From assembly GCA_965655095.1 (NCBI GenBank), contig OZ296654.1:86552001-86616000 (forward strand): a stretch of DNA of 64,000 bases, in the 5' to 3' direction. A program made the position numbers and the translations under genes. Shown here in pieces: positions 1 through 15,639 of this stretch (position 1 is its first letter; each line of letters starts with the position of its first letter). The notes under the pieces were generated by a model. It was not told where the DNA came from. It was given only the letters and a program-made list of their open reading frames with translations, and made no database searches. Source of the DNA: Haplodiscus bocki (lineage: Eukaryota).

Positions 1-2450
1 TAGTTCTTTTTTTGTGTGCCGTTAATCGATCAATCAGATTCGTGTAAAAAGTACAATAGAGCGTTCAGATTATTAAGAGAAAGCCGTAAGGAAGTCAAAA
101 TATTTAAACAACTCAATAAGAAGTCCAAATTGCGTATATTATGTGATGTTAGCCTCGAAAGACTAGGAGCAGCAGGAGCAGTGTTAGTGTCATTAGCAAT
201 AGATTGGTGGAAACCAGTAACTTATACATCAAAAAACCTGAAGAGCTTGAAAAAAAAATTGTTTTTCAAGCTTGAAATTTTGGTGTTACTTTGGGCAGTG
301 ATATTCTTCCACAATATTGCTCTAGGACTTTGACGAATAATTGACCGTAAGTTCTTGGTTGGCGTGCTGTAAAGGAAGATTGGGAAAAATACCTATTCCA
401 ATCGGTTAACATGATGATGAATAAAGTTTTTTACCTGTAATTTCCAAACGAATCAAGACCGAAGCCAAACTTTGGGATTAGTTAAAAAATTTAGGCTGCC
501 TGGAAAACCAGCGAACAAAATATCTGATCAAAACAATTAAACTGTGGAGTTTCTCGCTCACGGTTCTCTCGGTATTGGAAATGAAAAAAAAATGTTAATT
601 GAACAAATTATACGGACCAATCAACACACTGAATGAAAAGGCAAAAACAAACAGGAAAGATTCCATCGAAGAATCACAGAATTGCTGCACAAAAAAAAAT
701 GCAGTTCAGCAGTTGAGGAAACTTTCTCCTTTTGAAACAGTTTTTTGCCTGAGGAAAAAACACTCAGACAAAAAACTATTTCAAAAGGAGAAAGACTCAA
801 AACTAAGGATGTCATCAAGTTTGACTTCTTCCGAAAGTTACGAAAGTAGAGAGAGTGTTTGTAGAGTCGGGAAGGCATCTGAGGTCTATTTCAAAATGGA
901 GAGACAATGAATGAAATTACACTCAAAAGTCAAACATTTAGAAGATGTTAGCAATGGGCCATGTGAAGTGATTTGCGAGGTTATCAGTGAATTGTTGGCA
1001 GTGATCATGGCGGTCAAAGAAGTTAAACAGTCAGCACTGAAGAAAAGAAATTAAAAGTTACATCATCGGATGTTCACGGATTTGAAAATTGAAGAGAGCT
1101 TCTTCAATACAATGACAGACAAATTACACCAAAACTTTTTACGCGTTCTGTTTTGAACATTATCCACTAACGAAATCCATATTGAGACGCAAAACCAATA
1201 TTGGTAGCGGATATCTGTTGGTTGGAAGTTCATTGACAGAGTGTTTCAGAGGCAAAAGTCGCAAGGAATGTAGAAATGCATTTACGAAATTCAAAGATTT
1301 AAAAAGGCAAAGTCGGTTGTCAGTTGAGGAAATGATCCCAAGTTACTGAGATAACTCAAGTTTTAGCGCTGGGTTTTGTACTTTTGAGGCCCTTTTCGAA
1401 AAATCAGAGGAATTTGATTCAGTGAAAAAATATAGGTTTTTAGCGAGGAAAACAACACAATTTGGTGGAAACTATTTGTAGGTACATAGGAAAAGTTATT
1501 GTAGTTTCTTTCAATCACTATTGCCCAACAAAATCTTTTCACTTGGACAAGGGCTCAGTTTATTGAGGAAAAATTATGTACTTTTTGTAACAAATTTTCA
1601 TCATGCGTGAGGCATTACTATCAAGGAAACGGAAAAGCGGCATGACCAATAGGAACAATGATTGAACGACTATGAACCAATCCGCAGATTGCTTGGGATA
1701 AAAATGACTGCATATTGTCTTATGAAATGTAAGGAGCGTTACGCAGTGCGCAGAAGAAAGAGGGAGATGCCGATTTGAAATGCAATTTCCACTGGATATG
1801 TGGATATGAACAAAATGAAAACGATAAACTTTGACCAAATTAGGTTCCAAAGTAAAAAACAATTTGTTTGAAGCAGCGGTACTGGGGTTGAAACAAAATT
1901 TAGGGACTTCTGACGTGGTAAAGTTTGCACTGTGTGGGTAAGGTTGACCATGATACCGGGCAACCCGAGCCGCATGTTCTTGAAGAAAATGGGACGAAGG
2001 GTATCAGCAAAAAAACCAAAGGAAGAGGGAAAACTTTTTCTCTCAAAAAAAGACGTGGTGGAGGATGCAAGCAAGGTGAAGAGCATGGGGCGGAAATTAG
2101 ATCTACCGAAAATTTTAATACAAATGAAGGGAGAAGAATCACTAAAACGATTGAGATCTGAAGTGGTCAAAGACGATTCGGGGAAATTTTTTACTAGGTT
2201 TGACCATTTTGAAACTCTTGGACCTAAACGCCAGGGCAACTGTGCTTTATCTAGACAATAGTGGTTGGAAAGTAGAAAAGGAAAAATCTTCCGATTTTTG
2301 AGAGCCTCAGACTTTTTTGGTAAGCAGACATGATGAAGAAAAATGGAAAAGCCCTGGAATAACGGAATGTACCCTTTCGAAAGAAAAATTGAAATTGAAT
2401 CATTGCAAACACTTAAACTGGAACAAAATTTCCAGTGATGTTTACCCTTT
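1..2450 (+). pseudogene. Decayed Ty3/gypsy LTR-retrotransposon pol (RNase H, degraded integrase region), truncated by the window start
   Basis: ORF 16-333 reads LRILCDVSLERLGAAGAVL...WKPVTYTSK.L...KLEILVLLWAVIFF, matching the gypsy RNase H pattern CDAS..GLGAVL...PV.YASR.L...ELE.LA..WA..F. An xPGK motif lies near 495-505. Downstream frames are broken by stops and frameshifts. Confidence 0.7.
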
Positions 2451-2531
2451 ATTATAACACTTATCAACTTATAGTTGTGTTTGTTACAATTGCGTTCTCT
2501 GATGAAAAAATCAAATGGTTTTGTTTTTTTT

Positions 2532-2740
2532 GGGGGGGGGGGGGGGAGTGTCCTAAGCTGCCATTTTTATACCGCATCTGAGATAGAATAGCACCATAGT
2601 TTTGCTGACACATGTTAATAAATATTAAGTGTCTGTTCTAACCCTAATTTTGATGCAAGTTGTCGAACGAGCCTTGAAATGAGAACGTTCTTTTAAAACA
2701 AACTCTGTACCTGGTGACCTCCCTTTTACTACCTAATGAG
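2532..2740 (+). repeat. Putative polypurine tract (2532-2548) and start of the 3' LTR (TGT at 2549) of the gypsy element
   Basis: G15-AG run immediately followed by TGT, downstream of the pol remnant; AATAAA at ~2617. The LTR end cannot be defined. Confidence 0.45.
2735..2740. repeat. 6-bp target-site duplication (AATGAG; partner AATGTG at 15433-15438)
   Basis: 5/6 match directly outside both termini; 6-bp TSDs are typical of Polinton integrases. Confidence 0.8.
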
Positions 2741-3718
2741 GGTAGTGTATAAAACAGAAAATGACACCAGCCCCGCCGCGTCCACCAATTTAACGGCCAA
2801 TTTTTACGGCCAAGTTGTACGGCTGAAATGTACGACTAAGTTGTACGGCTAAGCGAACGCAGACTCAAAATTTAAAATAAAAGTTATCAATGGGGGTACA
2901 CAGGAATAAAAATTAAATTTTCTAAAAAAATATTTCAAAAAGTTTTATCAATAGGTGTACACAGGAATGAGCGAAAAATTTTCAACTGATTTTTTGTTCT
3001 AAAAACACATGAAAACTTTTCTATTTACATAATCAAAGAAGTAACAAAAATTTTACACATACCATACACAGTTACATTGTAAAACCAATAATGTCGACAT
3101 AATACAATACACGCATACACGGGACTGAAAAATTTTACTACCGATTATGTCAACATAATACATGAGACTGAAAAATACTACTAGCAATTATGTCGACATA
3201 GTAAAACATACACATACACGAGATTGAAAAAATTATGTCGACATAACAGAATATGTGTATTTATTCTAATTTCTCTCTTTCTGTTTTGTCTGCTATAGCC
3301 TAGTGGTTTTTGTGACATCGGCTAAAGTTAAGGCTATGCTTGAGTGGTAGTCATAGTGTTTGGGGTTCACTTTTAGCCAACGTCCCCCTGCCTTTGTAAT
3401 CATCATGCATAAAAGCTATATGAAACTCTAACAGGAATGCTTACTCGTGTTTGCTAGAAAGTTTGCCAGTGGGGTTTTGTAAAAAGGTATTTTTGTTGTC
3501 TTTCTCCTCCTAAAATATATATTTAGATTAAACATATCTTTTCTTTTCTAATTTTTCTTTCATTTTTACAATCATTCGTTAGTAATTTTTCCAAGGTTTC
3601 TTTCAATTTTACTTCCATAACATCGTTTGTCATCTAATTGTGATAGTGTAGATCCTTTTATGAGTTGAATATACATTTCCTGGTTAAGTGATCGAGTAAT
3701 ATAATTATGACATTCTGT
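2741..3718. repeat. Left terminal inverted repeat of the Maverick
   Basis: Reverse complement of ~14505-15432. Core 2851-3486 differs from 14713-15348 by about 6 substitutions (by eye); outer and inner parts are more diverged. Confidence 0.95.
3088..3247. promoter_or_regulatory. Four ~16-bp palindromes (consensus ATTATGTCGACATAAT) in ~45-55-bp tandem units inside the TIR (mirrored at ~14952-15111)
   Basis: Copies at 3088, 3144, 3187 and 3232, separated by ACAYGRGAYTGAAAAA-containing linkers. The repeats are seen directly; a regulatory function is inferred. Confidence 0.6.
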
Positions 3719-4790
3719 TTGATAGTTTTCTCCGCCTAAACATTTTTAATATTCCTCAAATTCAACTTTTTTCCATTGAGACTTAGAAAAACCTTTTAAC
3801 TTGCTTTCACTAATATCTCTACATTTAAACGCATGCATTTTACTACTTAGACAGATGAATTCATCAATCCAAATGTTTTAAGGAGTTTCTTTTTTAAATT
3901 TACCAATCACTTTTTGTTTCCATTACTAAAACCTTCATGATTTTCATTCAAACTGCTGAAAACAAATCAGTCTTCAAGATTTTTTAAGTCTTTTATAATA
4001 TGTTTTGTATATATACATAATATGAAACTATCAGTATCCTTAAGATGTAATTGAAGATTCTCTAGTCCAGTTTATGAATGTAATTTATCATATTAAGTTT
4101 CATAGATTAATAAATTGCTAAATTCCAGTACTGCAATTCCAAGATGAATTGGTTCATCCATAAGAACTTCGTTTTTTTTTAATTGTAAAAGTCTCATAGA
4201 TTGTATAAGGTTTATGAATTCCACTGAATGTTAATTTTGATAGTTGTTTACAAATTTTATCATTACCATACTTTTTTATTTTTTCTATTTCTGCTCTTTC
4301 TCTAACATTTTCCATTGTTTTTCCATAAAATGAGTAATTGAGTGGTTTACAGAAGTCTCTTTCAAAATCATTTCTCGCGAAATTTCTCTTTTGTGTATTA
4401 AAATTGATATTTTTCTCTAATCATTTTTTTTGTTTAAATGAAATTAACTCTCGAATGTTTTCAACTATCATACCTTGTCCAACATAAATTTTTAACATCC
4501 TTTAATGAATCATATAAATCTTTCTATCACTCCAACCCTAGAAAAATTTTTTAGTTATTGTATAAGTATCTGGTTTATTTTTTTTCATATATGGAGTGAA
4601 ACTATCAAGATTAATTTTTCCATTTTCAGGAGCAAATGGAAAATGTTTTACTTTTTCCCTAAATTCATCAAAAAAATCTAAATCAGTTTCAACGAAAGAA
4701 CCAATATCACTATCATCGGGAGTATTTAATAAATTGGGAGTATTTTTTAATATATACAAAAAGGTACAAAATATATTTTTTGTATTTTTC
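3570..4790 (-). pseudogene. Protein-primed family B DNA polymerase, C-terminal part only
   Basis: GSFVETDLDF...FPFAPE (4538-4759 ORF); motif B NDFERDFCKPLNYSFYGKTMENVR (~4300-4372); motif C LKDTDSF (~4024-4045); C-terminal TLSQLDDKRCY (~3615-3650). Exonuclease and motif A regions are absent. Confidence 0.92.
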
Positions 4791-4829
4791 GACTGAGATT
4801 TTGTTTATATATAATTTTTTTAAATGGAT

Positions 4830-5090
4830 ATATAATTTATGGAAATCATTAACTTCATATAATTGATACAAAAGTATACAAAGGCAGAATGTTTTCTAAT
4901 CAGCATATTTTAATCTAGTAATAGAATTTATATTCTTCCTTGAAATTTTACTAGGTTGATTTTTTCGCTTTTCTACAATGTATCCACATGAAAGAAAAGT
5001 AAATTCATATTTATATGGCAATAAGCATTATCGATTACAATGTTTACAATGTTTGCAAAGAGTATCAGATCTTTTTAATAATTTCATCTT
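4830..5090 (-). pseudogene. Small Cys-rich ORF remnant
   Basis: MKLLKRSDTLCKHCKHCNR*CLLPYKYEFTFLSCGY; contains in-frame stops. Confidence 0.4.
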
Positions 5091-5124
5091 CAGTTAGTTC
5101 TATTTGTTAGGTAATATTTTATTC

Positions 5125-5977
5125 ACTTAAGTTTGTTTCGTTTATAACTTATTACTTGATTATTTTCTTCAAGAGTTGAACTTGTTGCTCTTAATAGATT
5201 CTCTTTATATCTTTCTGGTGAAAAGTTGATGCAATAGCTATGGATTGTGTTATGTGTGACTTCATAATTTGTACATAATTTATAATTCCACTTCGTACTA
5301 TCAATGTTACTGAAAACTCTTTTGATATCAGCTGTGCGAACGGATTGTCCTAATTTATATTCTGGTTACTGTTTCTGTCTTTTGTCTTGGAGATTTGAAT
5401 AGACTTGTTTTTCACTAGTTTTTCCACTGGCTTGAATTGGAGTCATTTTTTTGAATGTTGTATAATACTATTGTATTGTTTAATAACAGACGGTAATTCA
5501 CTTAAGCAATCAGAACTTCGTTTTTCAAATACTGGTTTCTTTAATAACTTCCTTATAGTTCTATTAACCCTTTTTTAAATTGAGGGTCCCTTATCAGTAA
5601 ATCGTGAATAAGGATGAATTTTTTTAACTTTCAAGAAAATTTGAAAAATAATATCGTATAATTCCTTCCCTCTATCGCTTTCTATTTTATAAGGTCTTCA
5701 TTTCGATGTTGCTAGAATGTTTGAAAACTCGTCTGTTAGTGTTTAATTGTTCTTTTTTTAACGTAACAAACCAAGTATTTATTGAGCAAATGTCGATTAC
5801 GAAGAATATATACCTCAATTCATTGCTATTTGACAGTTTACAATCTGAAAAATCTGCTTAATCGATACTCCATATTTCAGTGATATGATTATAAATTTAT
5901 TTCTTAGTTGGATAAAGTTTTTTAAGTGGTTTACTATAATATTTATCATTGATGATCTTCGTTGAATCTTGCTTCAT
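5125..5977 (-). pseudogene. Maverick retroviral-like (rve) integrase
   Basis: EIWSID*ADF; RPYKIESDRGKELY; HPYSRFTDKGPSI*KRVNRTIR; HSKKMTPIQAS; YKLGQSVRTAD. These match the DDE core and C-terminal motifs of Polinton integrases, with stops and frameshifts. Confidence 0.92.
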
Positions 5978-6500
5978 TTAGCCTAATTAATTGATAGGTT
6001 TTAATAAATTGTAGTTGATTTTCTAAGAAATTAATTCTTATTCCCTTTTGCTGATAAACTTATTTCAGTAATGGTCGAGTTTTTTCCAACGGAAAGCCTC
6101 TTTTCTTTCATATTTATTGGATACATCAAATAAGCAAACAGGCTTTACATGACCAATTTTTAAATTCAACCACTTCATCTCTGGAGTCATTTGATATTCA
6201 ATCCATTTTCTAAAAGTATCATTATTTATTCCTAAAAATTTTTTTGTGGAACATAATTTCGATTTACCGTTCAATGCATCATGAATCCTACATCCTGTAA
6301 CATTGATCAAACGAAAATTGACATCAGTTTCCTTTCTTTTCCAACAACGAAACAAACTTTCTCCTTTTTTCTGTTTTTTGCACTATAGTTTTTCTTTTAC
6401 TTTCTCACTTTTTCAGGATATTTTTATTTCAATCCTTTGTTTTTTGAGAACTTTTATCATATTTCGTTGTCGTGTAATAATCTTTCATACAACTTTTTCA
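5950..6500 (-). pseudogene. HNH-like endonuclease of the giant-virus/phage type
   Basis: KRKETDVNFRLI...RIHDALNGKSKLCSTKKFLG...FRKWIEYQMTPEMKWLNLKIGHVKPVCLFD...AFRWK, then after a frameshift TRPLLK*VYQQKG. This fits the pattern M.W.N...HIDHI.P...FD...F...NLQPL....N..K. A Lys-rich N-terminal extension lies upstream. Confidence 0.7.
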
Positions 6501-6529
6501 GAGTGTTTTTTGTGTTTTTCATTGTAATT

Positions 6530-6895
6530 TTGAATCTTGCTCATTCCAATTGAAACTATCTTGGAGTAAAAGTAGTTTGTTTCTGACAATTACATCTTGG
6601 GTTTGAACAATGATCATGCAATTTAACTATATCACCTTTACTATTTAAGTCACACCATGAAGAATTTGACATTCATGAACCATGGTTGTTTTTCCTTTTT
6701 TCATAAAAATTTCTCGGCGTGTCATTTACTTAGTAAAAATTTGTCGTTTATTTCGACCACAATTACTGCAAGAACCTTTGATAATATTAACAAGTTTTTG
6801 ATTTTAAGGGTTTGTTTTTTCATATATGTTTTGCTTCATAGTATGAGAAGAAAGACGACCTCCCAAGCAAAAAATTGTTTTTGATTTAAACCCAT
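6530..6895 (-). pseudogene. Two small tandem Cys-rich ORFs (starts at 6895 and 6725)
   Basis: First: FCLGGR...VNIIKGSCSNCGRNKRQIFTK* (DUF5679-like Zn ribbon). Second: WCDLNSKGDIVKLHDHCSNPRCNCQKQTTFTP. Confidence 0.5.
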
Positions 6896-7603
6896 TTAAT
6901 TACTAAAACCCATATTCGGTAGAAGCACTCGGTTGAACATCAATATTTTTTTTCTTTCTAGGTTTGAAAAAAATTATATTTTTACAAAAGTTAATACTCA
7001 CATTAAAATGGCTAAAATACTATTTATTTTAGTTATTTGTTCTGGTGAAAGGGAATCGTTACTTATGTTTTCAGCAAAAATATCTTCTACTTTGAAATCC
7101 GTATTCTTCATAACTCATTTTCGGTAATCAAGATAATGAGTTTTAATTTTTTTTCCAATTCCAAAACTGCTTTTTCAGCTATCTTCTTATCTATCATCGA
7201 TTGTTTCAAATAATTACTCATAAAACAAACTAATTACATTTTTCCAACCTCTTAATTTAGCATCTCTTATTTTTTTTTAATTTATTCATTCGTTCTTAAG
7301 ATATTATCAGATGTAAATAGTCCAGTACAACTAGTTGTTACTAGACCATTGTTTGGATTTAATAATGACAATCTGGACGTACTCATAGATGATACTGATA
7401 CTAAAAAAATTTCAGTGATAAAAAAAACTTTATTTTTTCAAACTTTTATACTTCTTCTGATACTAATCATTATGAATTTTAAGTGATTCTAAAATAATTT
7501 CATCATCGTGCTTTTTTTGTTCTTTTTTCAATTCTTTAATATAATCATGTTTGTTTTTTATTTTTATTAAGTCTGGATCATTGTTTATATTTGGATAAGC
7601 CAT
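6896..7603 (-). pseudogene. Hypothetical Maverick protein with coiled-coil and hydrophobic segments
   Basis: Starts MAYPNINNDPDLIKIK and ends NMGFSN* abutting the next ATG; several frameshifts. Confidence 0.45.
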
Positions 7604-7623
7604 TTTTTATTAGACGGAAAATA

Positions 7624-8069
7624 CTATTCTATTAATGATACAGCGACAAACTCTTTTAATATTCTTTGCCTAGGTATTCTTTCCAGAGCATGATCCTTTG
7701 TTATATTTATTTCATCATCAGTAAGTTTGCCTTGTTTTAATATGTCCGGACCTGTTAGTGATAATAATAGTATCAACGATCGTTTATGTCTAACATCTTC
7801 ACACATTTTAGCAAAGTCATGCTCCATTTACTTATTCAAAACCTTTTCCAAATAGATTCCTCTTCATTTTTATTAAAATTTAAGTCTTCTCCATTAAGTT
7901 CCATTAGAAAATCTTCAAACTCTAAACAAAGACGACTATATCACTTTTTGAATACCCACACTGGGCTAATAAGTCAGCATCTTTTTTAAATAAAAACAAT
8001 AATTTTACAATAATTTCTACAATAAGGTATTGATTCGAATAAATCTTTAAAATAATTTTCATGATCCAT
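7624..8069 (-). CDS. Two small hypothetical ORFs (8069-7828 frameshifted; 7827-7624 intact, 67 aa)
   Basis: MDHENYFKDLFESIP... and MEHDFAKMCEDVRHKRSLILLL...; each begins directly after the previous TAA. Confidence 0.5.
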
Positions 8070-9387
8070 TTAATATACAGAATGTGTTTTTGTAATACTA
8101 ATAAAGCGCATATCAGCATGAGGAGTATATATTTAATCATATATCAAATTAATACCATAACTTTTTACAGTAAAATTTAAGCTAACCAAAGTCCATTTAG
8201 TTGATGAATTGCTATGCCGAAATTTTTGAGGTTAATTATATCTAGTTGACCAAGTATTATCTTCTAATATTAGTTGATTTCCAAAACGACCCATCGATTT
8301 TAGCGAATCATTTGTTAAAATTGAAAACATTTTATAATAGAAAGTTATATTAGAAAGTTAGAAATATTCAGTTCTTTCGGAGTAAACGTACACATTGTCC
8401 CTCTGGTTGCCAGAGCTTGTTTCTATATACAAAAAACGATCCCCAATGGGAAGTAAAGAAATACCTTCAGAAGCACCTGTTGGACTGTTTGTTTTTGTTG
8501 CTTTTGTATGAATTTGTTTTTTACCATTGTTATTTTTATCATTACTATTTATTTTCCAGTATTGTAATAGATATCCACCACTAGTTGGATAAATATTAAT
8601 AGTTGTAACTGTAACTTGTATTTTATAAATATTTCATGAGATCATAAGCATCATTTCCAACAGATACTTTGAGATAGTTTTGCAGTGTTTGATAAAAATC
8701 TAAGAACAGTAATTTTATGTGAATCATCATCAACATTTTTTTATTTGCTAGTTCACTATCTGAGCTTGGGTTTCTATTATTCGTAATACCAATTAGGTTA
8801 GTTATTTTATTATTACCAATTCCATTGTTTTGATCGTTGAGTATTAATAAGAAGTCTCTTCTATTTCTACTGTTTTCATATCAGCTATCAATATATGATT
8901 TGGTAGGCAATTCTGTTATCGTTTTCAGTGATCTTAAAGCAGAATTGAGAATTATAGAATCTTGTTCACCTAATTTTGATTTTTGATCACGATTTAATCT
9001 TCATATAGAAGAATCAGCCACGCGATAAAAAACTACTTCATCAACGTAAAATTTTGGTGTAAGGTGTTCTCGGACAGCATGTAAACTATTTACTTTGTCA
9101 AAACGAACATTATAAAGATTTTTATCGTTAAAGTCTACATATGCAGTGTTTCGTATTATACTACAATCAATTAAACCACTATCAATATAAGTTTTTTTAG
9201 CAGCATATGTATTTTTTACAGGACAAGGTAATTTCCTATTTTTAAATTGATTTTTCATGTGAATATCTTCTTCTTTAGATTCTAGATAATTGGTCCTCAA
9301 ATAGGGTTTTTGTACGAATATACTGGTATCAACTTTAATACCATAATCTTGTGAGGAACACCTATTACCAAATACATTTATCGGCAT
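8070..9387 (-). pseudogene. Putative virion fibre/spike-like protein
   Basis: Repeated motifs DIHMKNQFKNRKLPCP...AAKKTYID, DFNDKNLYNV...LTPKFYVD, ELPTKSYID and ELANKKNVD resemble the D..N..I.NL..P....DAATK.YVD repeats of phage/viral tail fibres. Followed by a beta-rich C-terminal region ending THSVY*. Confidence 0.55.
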
Positions 9388-9399
9388 ATTTATATACCC

Positions 9400-9790
9400 A
9401 AAATACGTTTTTAAAATAGCATCAAAAAATTTCTTTCTTTCTATTAGACAGAAAATTTAATAACAATAGATACCACATAACTTACTATATATATCTTGTA
9501 TTCTATAATTTTGATAAAAGAATGCTTTAGGTAATTGGTTTAGTAAAAATTGATCTGGTTGACCACCAGGTGAATCAAAGTAATATGATTCGTTTTTTAA
9601 ATATAGAAACACACCCAATGAGTCCTTCCCATACCAGCTTTACCAATATTAACAAACCTTTTATCAGAAGATATTTTTGAATCACTAGGATTTATAGGAT
9701 AATTATAAATTCTTTGTAATTCACTCTCATTCATAGTATCTTTTTTCAAAACAATTTTTTTCATAAAAACTTTTAAAATAAGTGGAGTCT
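9400..9790 (-). pseudogene. Adenain-like cysteine maturation protease
   Basis: FVNIGKAGMGRTHWVCFY...SYYFDSPGGQP...IQDIYSKL, i.e. the H, D and Q/C motifs GTHW..., YFDSFG, Q...S..CG. Confidence 0.88.
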
Positions 9791-9793
9791 TTT

Positions 9794-10894
9794 TTATGTA
9801 ATATTAACCTGAGTAATTTCATTCCCATCCGATATCATCTTATTTTCTCTATGCCTGATAATTATTTTAAACAATCGAGCATTATTAGTAACACCTCTAT
9901 ATACTTCAAATAGTCGAACTTTCTGGGGATTACTATGATCACGTTGAAATCTAAGATCAATGACTTGAATTGGATATTTATTTTTCATATCAGTATAACT
10001 TATAAAAACTTCAAGTAGTTCCTCTCCAACGTACATTTAATAAATTAATTTAAGATGTCTATATCGATCAATACAATCATTAGAAGTGTTATGAAATTTA
10101 ACACCATCTCGTGGATATCCCACACCATCGATGTGAACATGATATTTTCTCATATTCAGATTGTCAAAACCAACGATATTGTTTGCTTTGTTTGGAACTC
10201 CTACTCTAACAGCTGTCTGATGAGCCACTATAGATATCTTGGAGATTTTTTTGAGCACTCCCAATATCCACTTGGTATTGTAACTGAGTATCAATTGTTT
10301 TTCTATCCGTACTCTATAGAATCAAATGATAAAGTAAATCTATTTTCAATAGAATCATTAAACATTATTTTTGTTTCAAGATTCCGGATGATTCTTGGAA
10401 CTTACAGAATTAATTTATCAAAGTTTATTTTAGTATTATCACCCAGTATTGCATGAAACGTATCTTGTATATCAGCTCTTTTGAAAGTTAGATGAATTCC
10501 TAACTGTTTAAAATTTTTTAAATTGTTCTACAAAATCCAAAATTATGTTCTAGGGGAGAACTAATTCTCCTTCAATTTTATTTTCGTTCGCAGCTGCGTC
10601 ATGATCGTTAATGAGTAGATGTTTAAGAGTCGTATTTTGGACTTGAACTTGAGGTTCATCAATTTTATCAAAGTGAGATAATAAATCTCAATCATTGCTT
10701 GTTAAAGCTCTCATAATAGTTGAAAGATGACCCACATAACTTTTAAGTTCTATGTCTGAACCTCCTGTAGTTGACAACCTCGTTTCTTTAAAACAGTATG
10801 CAAAAGCGTTATTTACTAATTTAATAGCAAACTAATTTAAGATTGAATCATCAATTGTTTCATTGTCTATAAAATGGAAACCTTCAAGGCTCAT
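9794..10894 (-). pseudogene. Major capsid protein (double jelly-roll, Polinton PY type)
   Basis: MSLEGFHFIDNETIDDSI...LVNNAFAYCFKETRLSTTGGSDIE...GHLSTIMR; FDNLNMRKYHVHIDGVGYPRD; KNKYPIQVIDLRFQ. Frameshifted. Confidence 0.85.
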
Positions 10895-11064
10895 TTATAT
10901 AATAAAGAACCATTTCCTAATAAAAGTTGGTGTTCAAAATTTTGTAAATTTGGAAATAATTGAGATTCATTATTTTCATATTTATGATTAGGTTTTTGTC
11001 TGTTTTTTTTTTTTAAATATATTCTTGGTTTTATTAGTGTCTTTGGCTTTTATTAGGTATAAAT

Positions 11065-11854
11065 TAACTTTCCTTGATTGATAATCTGACTTTTTTTGAT
11101 TGTCCCATGAATGATACTTTTTGATTTTTTTCATTTTTTGTTTCAAGTCTGTTTTTTGAAATAATGTCTTTAATTTCCATAATTTACCATTGTACCCCAC
11201 CTCTAAAATCTTCATTATATTCAAAACCAGGACCGACATCCGCTGTAAACTTGTCAAATATTCTTGATCTCTTACCCTTGATAATCAATCCCTGAGCGAT
11301 CTCAGTTTCGAAGCAAATACAGTCAAATGATATTATGTCAACGGGATTAGTGATAGATTACATATTTTTCATATATTGTTACTGCATCGAAACCTAAACG
11401 ATCTCTTATGCTATCATCCGGAAGAAAACATATTTGACTAACTTAAAAGTTTGGTCTAGTTTCTGTAATATTACATGCTGTAGAAAAAGTTGCTTTGTTA
11501 ACAAATTGGTAGTTTCTTTCTGTAAAATGGCCCTCTTTGATAATATTTCCTTTTTAATTCATCATTTGAGATCTCAAGTTCATATGCACCCTTGGGAATG
11601 GTAATAACATTAAAATCATCATCATTAATTGATATTGTGAAATAAAAGTTATTATTTTTGGCTGCAACATTAAATATTCCGTTTTGACCAGTCAGAAAAG
11701 TGACAGTTATTTTATATTGCCTATTATATGTTTGACGTGGTTGAGCTAGATGTTCTTCATGATTACATTTTTCCATAACAATCAACATATGCTCTCCAAT
11801 CTTAGGTCTTGCATTAAATGCGATTTGCTCAAAAATTTTAGTAGGTAGTTCCAT
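11065..11854 (-). pseudogene. Minor capsid (penton, single jelly-roll) protein
   Basis: GIFNVAAKNNNFYFTI...VITIPKGAYELEISNDELKR matches the N.F.F...I.IP.G.YE...IN..I motif; ends IRLSIKES*. Confidence 0.8.
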
Positions 11855-12761
11855 TCATTGGGTATTAAATTTATTAGGAGCATTTCGATTTTGTTCTTCG
11901 TTTTGTATTTCATTTCGTTTGTATAATTCATCTTTTAGATAACCAGTTTCTGTTAGAGTGTCAGTATGGCCAGATAGATTTAACTATAATAAAGTTTCTA
12001 ATCTAATATAAAATTCACTTATGTTGGATGGTATGATACTCTTTCAATTCCATCCCTTCCAAATCAGATTTGGTTTCGCCTCGAACAGATCTTTCTAAAA
12101 TTATATATACTTGACCATCAAGGTTTGTTTTAGTATATCTATCGGCTATATACTAAATCAGTAGATACCTGATTTAGTTTCTCTTGGTCTACGTATATAA
12201 TCATCTTAATTAAGACTTTTCATTTTATTTTGAAACTTTACTCTATCTAGGTCATTTAACTTTTTCAGTGGTTTGTCAGTTGCATCAGTAAGAACTTATT
12301 GACGATCAGTGATTATATCATACTCATCTTCATTAGTTTTAAGTTCTGAATCACTTAATATTTCAATAGGTATATTATTCCAAATTAATTCGCCAAAATG
12401 TCTTTCTTCTAAATTAAAAAATCTATTTTGTCTTTCATAATTGATAAAATTTTTTCTAATGATGTATCAAATTTTACACCTGGTTGAACATCACTTCGTT
12501 TCGAGTCTTTTCTATAGCTAATGTTTCAGTCTCATCATCATCAACATCTGATTTGTTCACTGTCTCACCTAAATTTTTAGTAGTCTTATTAACTTTATCT
12601 AATTTTTTAGTGATATGTGATAGTTTTTCTGCTTTTTTTTTATCATGAGTTTGTTTTAAGATTCCATTTTTGTATTTAATTGCTCGTTGAATTTTCTGTT
12701 GTTCTGCTAAGTTACTCAAATGTATTCAATCTTCCCTTCTAACATTATGATAAATCCTCAT
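11855..12761 (-). pseudogene. Conserved Maverick hypothetical protein (PZ-like C-terminus)
   Basis: Coiled-coil N-terminus MRIYHNVRRED*IHLSNLAEQQKIQRAIKYKN; C-terminus PSNISEFYIRLETLL*LNLSGHTDTLTE...DELYK resembles RL.LL....AGH......I.DEL. Confidence 0.55.
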
Positions 12762-13501
12762 TTACTTGATATGAAAAGGGGAGCTATCTGAAACGAATGA
12801 ATTTTTCAATCGTAATCGATATCGAGCTGTATTTTTATCTTTAGTCATATCAATAGTGAGTGGTTGATATTTTTTATCCCAACAAGTAGATGTTATTTAA
12901 TCGAATTTGTTAAGTGTCAAATCTATACTTGTTTTGTCTTGGTAACGATTTGCTACAACTCTGAAATCGATAGGTTTGAAGGTGTGGTAGATATTTCCAT
13001 TTGCTCGGATAGTTTTTTTGGATGTTCGTAGTATTGTTGGCTGATTATGAAAATAAACAAATTATTATGTCTACAATTTTTAAGCATTGCTTGTATCCGA
13101 AAATCGTTCCTCTCTTTTTCGTTTAAATCATTCAAGTTATTAATACCTCCAACTTCGTATTCTTGTGGAAATTTTTTATCTTCTATTGATTCATATGTCT
13201 CTATTTCAGTATCTGATTTTTGGAAGTGTTTGTCATTAAATATCTCATCAATTATTAAATCAATATCATCTTAATTGAGAATATTTGAGACTATGTGAAA
13301 TGGTATATAGTTGCTAAAACGTTTAAATACTTTTTGATATAATTATTTAAGTAGAGATGGTGAGTATATGTATGTTTCATCATATTAAATAATATTATAT
13401 AAAAGTAAATTTGATAAAAAAATACTTTTTCCCGATGAGCTCGATCCACAAATAACGCATCTGAGTGGATGAGTTGGGTATAAAAATTTATCCGTTATCA
13501 T
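12758..13501 (-). pseudogene. A32/FtsK-HerA-type genome packaging ATPase
   Basis: PLRCVICGSSSSGKS (Walker A, ~13425-13470); NDLNEK (Walker B remnant); CRHNNLFIFIISQQYYEHPKK (A32 Arg-finger/sensor motif). Confidence 0.92.
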
Positions 13502-13680
13502 TTATTAGTTATTATAGGTTCAATCATTGTGTATATTATTAATCCTATGAGATGGAATAATAATGTGTTTGCTGGGATTGATGGAAGTAAGTATTTGATA
13601 ATAAAATTAACATCTTTGTTTTCATTGTTTGTACAATTAGTGAAATAATTGTAATCATCAGTAATATTTAACGCATACAT
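13498..13680 (-). CDS. Small membrane protein, 60 aa, open frame
   Basis: Hydrophobic stretch IIKYLLPSIPANTLLFHLIGLIIYTMI; coupled to both neighbours (TAA-ATG upstream, ATGA downstream). Confidence 0.55.
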   Translation of the reverse strand: MYALNITDDYNYFTNCTNNENKDVNFIIKYLLPSIPANTLLFHLIGLIIYTMIEPIITNK

Positions 13681-14480
13681 TTATTGAACATCAAATGGTA
13701 AATTGTCATAATTTCTAATTAGAGGATGATTAAGAGTTCAGTCTAAACGATTGATTAGAATGGGATTTTTAGCAGTAATCAATTTTAATTTGAGTTCAAA
13801 TATCTCCATTAGTTGTTTAATATAATAATTATAGTTCATATATCTTCTATCACTAACAGTTTTTATATTCATTTCAATTATACGTGAAAACTTGTAACGT
13901 TTTAGAATATAATAAACAGTCCAATATATTGAATACCTTTTCAAGTTAACAATTCTAATATTAGGATAAGATTTTGTTTTATTTTATGGAGTGAAATCCT
14001 TAAATATCATTTTAAAATCACATTTAACAAGAAATGAATCAATTTTTTTTGTAATTAGTGATAAATTCGTTAAAAATTCTATCTATATCAAATAAATCTG
14101 GATTTTAATAGTATAATATCTATGAATTCATTTCCCAAATTGAAAATGTGTAAGAGATTTCAGATGGTCGTTTTTTGATTTCAATTTAATTGTTTTCAAG
14201 ACATACACCACAGTAGTAAACAATATTTATATGTATAAGATTATTTGAAATAAAAATATTTTTCTAAAATTGTAGTCGTATTGTTGAATTGTTATCTTTC
14301 ACGAACTTTAGTAAAATAAGTAGATGATTTCAGATGTTTTTCATAAAATCCTTCTCTACATAAATTATCACAAATATTGCAGAATGTTCTATATTCTCCA
14401 TGATCATCACAATACATAACTTTTTGATTAATATTATCACTATTGCTTTATTCGGTTGAAAATGTTTGAAATGATTTATA
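13681..14480 (-). pseudogene. Zinc-finger (C2H2-like) ORF remnants
   Basis: YYCGVC...KSKNDHLKSLTH (~14150-14220) and YRTFCNICDNLCREGFYEKHLKS (~14325-14395). Confidence 0.65.
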
Positions 14481-14504
14481 TAAACTCTCAAGTTTCTCCA
14501 TACT

Positions 14505-15432
14505 AAGAACAATGTGACAATTTATTAGTCGATCACTTAACTATGAAATGTATCTTCAACTCGTAAGGAAAATCTACACTATCTGAATTAGATGATAAAC
14601 GATGTTATGAAAGTAAAATTAGAAGCAAACCTTGGAAATACCAAAAATTTGGAAAGAAAAGATATGTTTAATCTAAAAATACATTTTAGGAGGAGAAAGA
14701 CAACAAAAATAACTTTTTACAAAACCCCACTGGCAAACTTTCTAGCAAACACGAGTAAGCATTCCTGTTAGAGTTTCATATAGCTTTTATGCATGATGAT
14801 TACAGAGGCAGGGGGACGTTGGCTAAAAGTGAACCCCAAACACTATGACTACCAGTCAAGCATAGCCTTAACTTTAGCCGATGTCACAAAAACCACTAGG
14901 CTATAGCAGACAAAATAGAAAGAGAGAAATTAGAATAAATACACATATTCTGTTATGTCGACATAATTTTTTCAATCTCGTGTATGTGTATGTTGTACTA
15001 TGTCGACATAATTGCTAGTAGTATTTTTCAGTCTCATGTATTATGTTGACATAATCGGTAGTAAAATTTTTCAGTCCCGTGTATGCGTGTATTGTATTAT
15101 GTCGACATTATTGGTTTTACAATGTAAATGTGTATGGTATGTGTAAAATTTTTGTTACTTCTTTGATTATGTAAATAGAAAAGTTTTCATGTGTTTTTAG
15201 AACAAAAAATCAGTTGAAAATTTTTCGCTCATTCCTGTGTACACCTATTGATAAAACTTTTTGAAATATTTTTTTAGAAAATTTAATTTTTATTCCTGTG
15301 TACCCCCATTGATAACTTTTATTTTAAATTTTGAGTCTGCGTCCGCTTAGCCGTACAACTTAGCCGTACAACTTGGCCGTGAAACTGGGGGACGCGCCGG
15401 GGCTGGTGTCTTTTTCTATTTTATACACTACT
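14505..15432. repeat. Right terminal inverted repeat of the Maverick
   Basis: Mirror of 2741-3718. Includes an inverted copy of the last ~45 codons of pPolB (STLSELDDKRCYESKIRSKPWK on + at ~14572-14637). Confidence 0.95.
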
Positions 15433-15639
15433 AATGTGCTAAAAATGTTCACATCACAGTTACATTGAAAACATTAAGGCCCTTAGATGGAAAGGTTGAA
15501 ACTTTGACAGGAACATGTTCTCAGGTTTTGCCCTAAAATTGGCATGCAGGTTGTTGGAATTTGTTAATTTGTGTTTTGCAACATCCTTTTTAGCAGCGTT
15601 TCCGTAGAAACCCATGTCTTGGGGTGAATTCGAAAATCC

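Follow-up and report, generated by a model that had tools for sequence, protein, structure and literature searches.

The family reported here has in common with the animal Maverick/Polinton elements and adintoviruses described in PMC8502044 its terminal inverted repeats (TIRs), a 6-bp target-site duplication, a pPolB polymerase, an rve integrase, an A32-like packaging ATPase, a double-jelly-roll major capsid protein (MCP), a probable penton and a protease. At issue for animal Mavericks are their mode of expression and spread and the choice between an autonomous viral life and parasitism on larger viruses. The closest known case to this family is that of the entomopoxvirus-associated Polinton-like viruses (PLVs) AHEV_PLV1/2 and CBEV_PLV1. 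Barth et al. 2024 (PMC11296320) found them as three contigs of about 12 kb in entomopoxvirus occlusion bodies; they encode either a tyrosine recombinase or no recognized integrase. We analyzed a stretch of 64,000 nucleotides from Haplodiscus bocki (hereafter the window; contig OZ296654.1, positions 86,552,001 to 86,616,000), which contains, at positions 2741–15432, a decayed copy of a Maverick family, and compared this copy with sister copies elsewhere in the genome. Two features set this family apart from the animal Mavericks described in the literature covered: the majority of its gene starts have a late-promoter layout of the pox type, and some copies have captured a gene for Rpo18, the 18-kDa subunit of poxvirus RNA polymerase. 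Its Maverick core kit is already known. Read from sequence, such a promoter signature names a candidate class of helper virus.

The family and the entomopoxvirus-associated PLVs, as the latter are presented in PMC11296320, are both small capsid-encoding animal elements, proposed to be parasites of poxviruses and to exchange genes with them. They differ in that the family has an rve integrase and very many chromosomal copies, and in that its link to poxviruses consists of the promoter layout and Rpo18, from which we infer the helper. The terms promoter, RNA polymerase, transcription and VLTF do not occur in the main text of that paper. Virophages and provirophages such as Mavirus, Sputnik and Gezel-14T likewise encode a capsid and replication proteins of their own, lack an RNA polymerase and have promoters in common with their helper, as outlined in PMC11464507; their hosts are protists and their helpers giant viruses of the mimivirus type, whereas the present family resides in an animal genome and its helper dependence is proposed. 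Trichomonas Polintons with an egovirus KilA gene (10.1101/2024.03.23.586382) are likewise high-copy Polintons that captured a gene from a poxvirus relative, although their host is a protist and KilA binds DNA rather than forming part of an RNA polymerase; the word “promoter” has 0 occurrences in that paper. The yeast cytoplasmic linear plasmids pGKL also carry a pPolB, and their TAAAN initiator gives rise to 5′ poly(A) leaders, but according to PMC6211774 they encode both an RNA polymerase and a capping enzyme themselves and, unlike this family, have no capsid or integrase. A term search of the adintovirus and Polinton papers PMC8502044, PMC11131425 and PMC10748475 found no instance of “promoter”. 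In the literature covered, which takes in few subscription journals, no RNA polymerase subunit or TAAATG promoter is reported in a Polinton; annotations of that kind may exist in the supplements of PMC11296320 and PMC8502044.

The 1.5-Gb host assembly was searched with an 80-aa capsid fragment, which returned 5,580 first-look candidates; these are not copy numbers, and among the best 150, which were scored, many have open frames of 420–450 aa. The family likely comprises thousands of copies. Histone, tubulin and Pol II genes in the assembly are consistent with an animal host. We fetched the 10 copies nearest to the window copy by TIR, 10 with an open capsid frame and 19 chosen by Rpo18. Stop codons number 1.4–2.5 per 100 codons in the six TIR-nearest copies that were counted, which are old and decayed, and 0–0.6 in the capsid-chosen, young copies.

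Gene starts in these copies were placed by homology to natural open reading frames (ORFs), with 6 of 29 query entries skipped as duplicates or non-N-terminal pieces. Across 29 young-copy stretches, the hexamer TAAATG stands at 266 of 369 starts, compared with 291 of 6,754 other ATGs (4%), a background count that excludes three divergent or partial copies. The same enrichment is seen in old copies (27/40 starts vs 94/1,982 other ATGs) and in the window copy (4/7 automatically placed starts vs 11/245), where a manual check found the exact hexamer at eight starts, variants at two and a changed site at one (Table 1). Because the copies are related, we also counted gene by gene: TAAATG is the majority form in 17 of 23 entries and TAAA in 22 of 23. 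All 27 MCP starts carry TAAATG, though the median synonymous distance between the MCP genes exceeds 1. The family also has relatives in two JGI metagenomes (eight contigs, 70–86% nucleotide identity), where the hexamer is present at 7/7 MCP starts.

A second feature lies at a fixed distance upstream. The tenth base before TAAA is T at 261 of 348 starts (75%), compared with 34% of 12,640 other TAAA sites, and this T is in the majority in 18 of 22 entries, with 25/25 for MCP and 26/27 for the penton gene; the exceptions are Rpo18 (3/20), the HNH gene (0/5) and two Zn-finger paralogues. In vaccinia late promoters, TAAAT and a G after it overlap the start codon and the tenth base upstream is a conserved T; intermediate promoters have TAAA but lack this T (PMC11980589). 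The start layout of the family thus matches the published vaccinia late-promoter layout. Slippage at an initiator of the TAAA type produces 5′ poly(A) leaders (PMC6211774). Host gene starts look different: TAAATG was found at 0 of 17 (three histones, eight tubulins and six HSP70, one HSP70 having TAAAATG), the context being mostly A or G at −3, and in the host DNA within the window the hexamer occurs at 38 of 1,508 ATGs.

The gene for Rpo18 is a 145-aa ORF in sister copies that matches Pfam PF03293, the poxvirus RNA polymerase 18-kDa subunit (E 2.4e-23). Against the PDB it finds vaccinia Rpo18 (E 1.4e-14); the only other match at E up to 1 is at chance level, and no host or ASFV Rpb7 chain is among the matches up to that threshold. 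The genome search gave 563 candidates, and 136 of the best 150 have no stop, a best-scoring set being biased toward intact genes. All 19 fetched loci lie inside the element; 17 of them precede the Zn-finger–ATPase block, and the remaining 2 are found at the opposite end in reverse orientation. In the part of the family that has it, Rpo18 is kept under purifying selection (dN/dS 0.24 over 20 ORFs). When 1.84 billion representatives were searched with a profile, 63 matches were obtained; ten of the longer ones were looked up, and the three named virus proteins among them are all poxvirus Rpo18, from sea otter poxvirus, carp edema virus and salmon gill poxvirus. A structure prediction made without an alignment (pLDDT 43) was set aside. 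In addition, two paralogous Zn-ribbon genes before pPolB resemble VLTF3 (poxvirus late transcription factor 3) and are putatively VLTF3-like; VLTF3 has already been reported in polintoviruses (PMC11131425).

No catalytic RNA polymerase subunit was found among the scanned ORFs of the copies examined. The element does have genes for integrating, copying and packaging itself. Taken together with pox-type starts that are unlike those of the host and an Rpo18 that is kept in part of the family, this is most simply read as a virophage-like cycle in poxvirus factories. We consider it about evenly probable that the family is an integrating, virophage-like parasite transcribed by the poxvirus-type polymerase of a co-infecting virus; this is a sequence-based proposal, in which helper dependence is inferred, since no helper virus was found in the assembly. 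A promoter layout in common with the helper is seen when the family is set against the published vaccinia late layout, with vaccinia standing in for the family's own helper, and gene exchange with poxviruses is seen in the Rpo18 of sister copies, not in the window copy.

In the proposed cycle, integrated copies would stay mostly silent until, in a helper-infected cell, a copy of the element reached the cytoplasmic factory. There its genes would be read as late or intermediate genes, with 5′ poly(A) leaders made by slippage, and the element would replicate by protein priming from its TIRs, be packaged in its own capsid and then re-integrate. The captured Rpo18 and the VLTF3-like pair would target the transcription complex of the helper, either to favor the element or to keep the helper in check, and repeated rounds of the cycle would explain the high copy number. 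Under this model, transcripts should begin within the TAAA and carry poly(A) leaders, and the element should be active in connection with poxvirus infection. We put forward more tentatively, as possible rather than probable, that this animal germline would hold thousands of poxvirus provirophages, a Maverick family placed fully on poxvirus post-replicative promoters that would use Rpo18 and two late-factor homologues to hijack or damp helper transcription; they may be a heritable antiviral defense, and an undescribed deep poxvirus lineage would then circulate in the host. The start-motif count can be applied to any Maverick family and may help to sort helper-dependent from autonomous lineages.

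Several observations weigh against a poxvirus-dependent cycle. The poxvirus families PF04441, PF03340 and PF04947 were not found in the host genome, in searches whose controls were silent too, and a genome search with PF00562 (Rpb2-type) gave only two loci, host Pol II and Pol III. Germline integration at such a scale needs access to the nucleus, so that a cytoplasmic cycle alone is insufficient as an explanation. The copies are related, and the start counts are therefore not independent. Seven more distant IMG/VR Polinton-like contigs with a related polymerase have exact TAAATG at 4 of 53 ORFs but TAAA within seven bases at 28 of the 53, in AT-rich sequence; the exact hexamer is therefore specific to the family among those tested and the loose form is not. 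The closest capsid relative, contig L153, has loose TAAA starts in 11 of 12 ORFs, and part of the start signal may be ancestral or fit another helper. Rpo18 is present in only 3 of the 10 capsid-chosen young copies and 0 of the 10 old ones, and is absent from the window; being missing from most copies, it is dispensable, and its own start mostly lacks the late-type T (3/20). A 16-row tree does not nest the element proteins in any named poxvirus group and places them on their own long branch, with long-branch problems. For the longer Zn-ribbon gene (282 aa), 25 of 30 ESM Atlas matches (0.92) are VLTF3-like clusters, but with a low recognition score; the protein has no Pfam match, PF04947 included, and the best fold match of its pLDDT 52 model, entomopoxvirus VLTF-3, is not significant (E 0.29).

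The alternative that fares best, although we regard it as unlikely, is that the family is a conventional, autonomous Maverick that lives in the nucleus and is transcribed by host Pol II, with TAAATG as its own compact initiator or as an inherited relic. Rpo18 would then have been gained once from a poxvirus for another role, such as replacing or blocking host Rpb7 or hindering a poxvirus without depending on it. The lack of a helper trace in the assembly, the very high chromosomal copy number, the absence of Rpo18 from most copies and the TAAA-type starts across distant Polinton-like contigs fit this explanation. It is harder to reconcile with the T at −3, which runs contrary to the host context, and TAAATG as an initiator leaves no space for a normal 5′ untranslated region. 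The motif is moreover kept at every MCP start in spite of the synonymous divergence, and both the T at the tenth base, as in vaccinia late promoters, and the presence of a pox-type subunit would have to be coincidences.

More doubtful is a helper of another kind, an asfuvirus-like or other member of the Nucleocytoviricota with a cytoplasmic cycle and pox-like late promoters, from which Rpo18 would have come. The long branch of the element Rpo18, with unnamed metagenomic proteins on another, leaves room for such a source, and the Atlas clusters of the VLTF3-like gene span Nucleocytoviricota and Preplasmiviricota. The Rpo18 matches themselves speak against it, since they are to a poxvirus-specific Pfam family and the vaccinia chain, with no host or ASFV Rpb7, and 3/3 named virus matches are poxviruses. 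Very improbable, finally, is TAAATG as a translation device of a compact AT-rich genome (a stop abutting a start, or a guard against upstream initiation) rather than a promoter, for although at 57 of the 266 starts the TAA closes an upstream ORF of at least 50 aa in the same frame, at 209 it does not, including 25/25 MCP and 24/24 PZ-like starts; nor would such a device be expected to produce a T peak at constant spacing.

Other motifs were seen near gene starts. A CATTT(C/G)AA or ATTTGA motif lies 25–28 bases upstream at a minority of starts, in some genes. Early-class pox transcription is not claimed, since TTTTTNT, the terminator of early genes, shows no depletion in either Rpo18 (37 observed vs 32 expected) or the Zn-finger genes (59 vs 62 expected). 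Some IMG/VR Polinton-like contigs have common start motifs of their own, with AAAATATCTT upstream in L091 and TAAA(A)ATG in 11/12 ORFs of L153 and 7/7 of L149; these possibly mark other helper viruses. Among the Rpo18-like proteins, the unnamed metagenomic sequences P0282, P0289 and P0308 branch apart from both chordopoxviruses and fish poxviruses and may belong to undescribed poxvirus relatives. Three homologue searches were dominated by unnamed ENA proteins close to the family, and IMG/VR scans with the Rpo18 alignment, the MCP, the MCP alignment and an unnamed Rpo18-like protein gave no matches.

The core of the family is the standard Maverick/adintovirus kit. The original prediction of a Maverick/polintovirus with capsid genes is borne out by intact ORFs of sister copies: MCP matches the double-jelly-roll family PF21738 above cut-off (E 1.2e-14; ESM Atlas 0.98), the integrase matches PF00665 (E 1e-13), the A32-like ATPase PF04665 (E 3e-10) and one type of pPolB PF03175 (DNA_pol_B_2, E 1.4e-14). 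The pPolB type found in the window has no PF03175 match; its counterparts in IMG/VR Polinton-like contigs are large polymerase-like ORFs with 29–39% identity. The protease of an intact copy reaches Peptidase_C5 only at E 0.015, below cut-off, and has 33–40% identical homologues in three IMG/VR contigs. For the penton there was no Pfam, PHROG or PDB sequence match, and its homologues adjoin capsid genes in contigs L150 and L153; PDB sequence searches with penton and MCP gave chance matches only. The TIRs, 6-bp duplication, pPolB, rve integrase, MCP, ATPase and protease that mark Mavericks/Polintons are thus all found, and the penton assignment is probable. Core genes have dN/dS values of 0.12–0.2 in sister copies, and with its capsid kit under purifying selection an ancestor that formed particles, as had been suggested, is plausible.

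Two pPolB types that can barely be aligned with each other accompany near-identical capsids (MCP 91% identical between copy M5 and copies M1/M2/M7), with five copies of each type among M1–M10. In old copy TA, the other pPolB type adjoins a TIR remnant of the window's type. Two polymerase types on one capsid module indicate recent polymerase swapping, as in nematodes; two polymerase classes on one capsid module are described for both adintoviruses (PMC8502044) and nematodes (PMC10748475). A distinct lineage had been proposed on the strength of the near one-way layout, the fibre-like gene, HNH and Zn ribbons. This argument is not supported: previous work on adintoviruses and Polintons has described comparable accessory genes as well as polymerase swaps and VLTF3-like genes (PMC8502044, PMC11131425, PMC10748475).

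The copy in the window is dead and partly deleted, and alone it is an ordinary fossil. It is fully bounded, as first proposed, with termini GGTAGT at 2741 and ACTACT at 15432, a target duplication and TIRs of about 0.95 kb each (2742–3714 / 14511–15431), whose alignment of 975 columns contains 34 mismatches and 7 gaps; long TIRs with ends of the AG type are those of a Maverick/Polinton. Perfect 6-bp target duplications flank two sister copies, M2 (GATGTC) and TC (TAGTGG). GC content is 24–30% inside the element and 30–43% outside. The predicted minus-strand order was recovered, running from a Zn finger through a small hydrophobic ORF, ATPase, PZ-like, penton-like, MCP, protease, fibre-like, three to four hypothetical genes, HNH/EndoVII, integrase and Cys-rich to pPolB (Table 1). 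All members of what had been called a complete morphogenesis module are present, but as remnants: no gene is intact, the longest open frame within the element is 151 aa, and 54 stops fall in 2,239 codons aligned over eight core genes with intact natural ORFs of sister copies. The description as unidirectional is right for the main genes, with the exception of a plus-strand duplicate of the pPolB 3′ end in the right TIR; many sister copies also have small reverse-strand genes at that TIR end. None of 12 window ORF fragments from the element interior matches Pfam by itself, so the identities in Table 1 come from sister copies, whose intact natural ORFs were used as tblastn queries to map the window genes. 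Beyond the late-promoter starts and the Rpo18 of sister copies, the size of the family and a deletion in the window copy had been overlooked.

Table 1. Features of the Maverick copy, in window positions.
Feature	Positions	Strand	Remarks
Left target-site duplication AATGAG	2735..2740	.	right copy AATGTG, 5/6 identical
Left TIR	2741..3714	.	internal 13-, 43/99- and 61-bp repeats; inner end overlaps pPolB 3′ end
pPolB remnant, C-terminal part only, broken	3602..4732	-	46–62% to natural ORFs
Internal deletion junction	4734..4787	.	comparison with four related copies
Zn-ribbon gene, N-terminal remnant, likely VLTF3-like	4788..5057	-	Atlas on paralogue; weak fold match
rve integrase remnant	5150..5977	-	start TAAATG retained (5977)
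HNH / endonuclease VII-like remnant	6065..6382	-	54% to intact sister ORF
Two small Cys-rich gene remnants	6517..6895	-	starts TAAATG retained (6895, 6725)
Coiled-coil and hydrophobic-segment gene remnant	7001..7603	-	start variant TAAAAATG (7603)
Hypothetical gene remnant	7764..8069	-	start TAAATG retained (8069)
Fibre-like gene remnant	8073..9387	-	start variant TAAATATG (9387)
Adenain-like cysteine protease remnant	9400..9782	-	sister-copy homology
MCP remnant	9794..10894	-	start TAAATG retained (10894)
Probable penton (minor capsid) remnant	11070..11854	-	start now TGAATG (changed site, 11854)
PZ-like gene remnant	11858..12761	-	start TAAATG retained (12761)
A32-like packaging ATPase remnant	12774..13501	-	start region TAAATG retained (13501)
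Small hydrophobic ORF remnant	13502..13680	-	start TAAATG retained (13680)
Zn-finger-family gene remnant	13699..14196	-	several paralogues in sister copies
Plus-strand duplicate of pPolB 3′ end	14501..14635	+	inner edge of right TIR
Right TIR	14511..15432	.	TIR arm alignment
Right target-site duplication AATGTG	15433..15438	.	

The internal deletion amounts to 2.9–3.6 kb net, about 3.5 kb, and removed most of pPolB together with two Cys-rich sequences, the end of one gene and a second gene; the paralogue of the Zn-ribbon gene falls in the deleted stretch. The remaining pPolB fragment is of the type of the EndoVII-containing (Beta-like) polymerases of sister copies, the EndoVII insert being present in intact relatives. 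The intact sister ORF of the HNH gene matches PHROG endonuclease VII (E 2e-14), and the fibre-like gene is so named from its position and a weak match to a PHROG tail protein (E 1e-3). The second of the two small Cys-rich genes, possibly cupiennin/pVI-like, has a basic amphipathic tail in intact copies, and the gene that follows in Table 1 is 204 aa long there, with a SLATT_1 match below cut-off. We take the gene between penton and ATPase to be PZ-like, hence its label. A CxxC-H motif lies further upstream of the Zn-finger gene, near 14390.

In the capsid region, identity to the nearest relative does not exceed 76%, so the window copy is an old insertion. The middle 747 nt of its TIRs (2810–3556 / 14643–15389) are 97% complementary despite this age; in five comparably decayed copies the TIRs are 75–88% identical, and in one other 93% over part of their length. 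Possibly the two arms underwent patchy gene conversion once the copy had inserted. TIR length varies across the family by capture of adjacent genes, and two loci have Rpo18 in reverse orientation next to the polymerase end, where it has been copied into the opposite TIR. To the left of the element, window positions 1560–2566 hold overlapping open frames of up to 275 aa with no Pfam match, probably another decayed repeat. Copies TE and TF belong to a second, differently ordered Maverick family that has TIR sequence in common with the main one and TAAATG at several ORF starts too. Two further copies contain tandem amplifications, with seven repeats of the VLTF3-like pair in TJ and three repeats of the PZ–penton–MCP block in TK.

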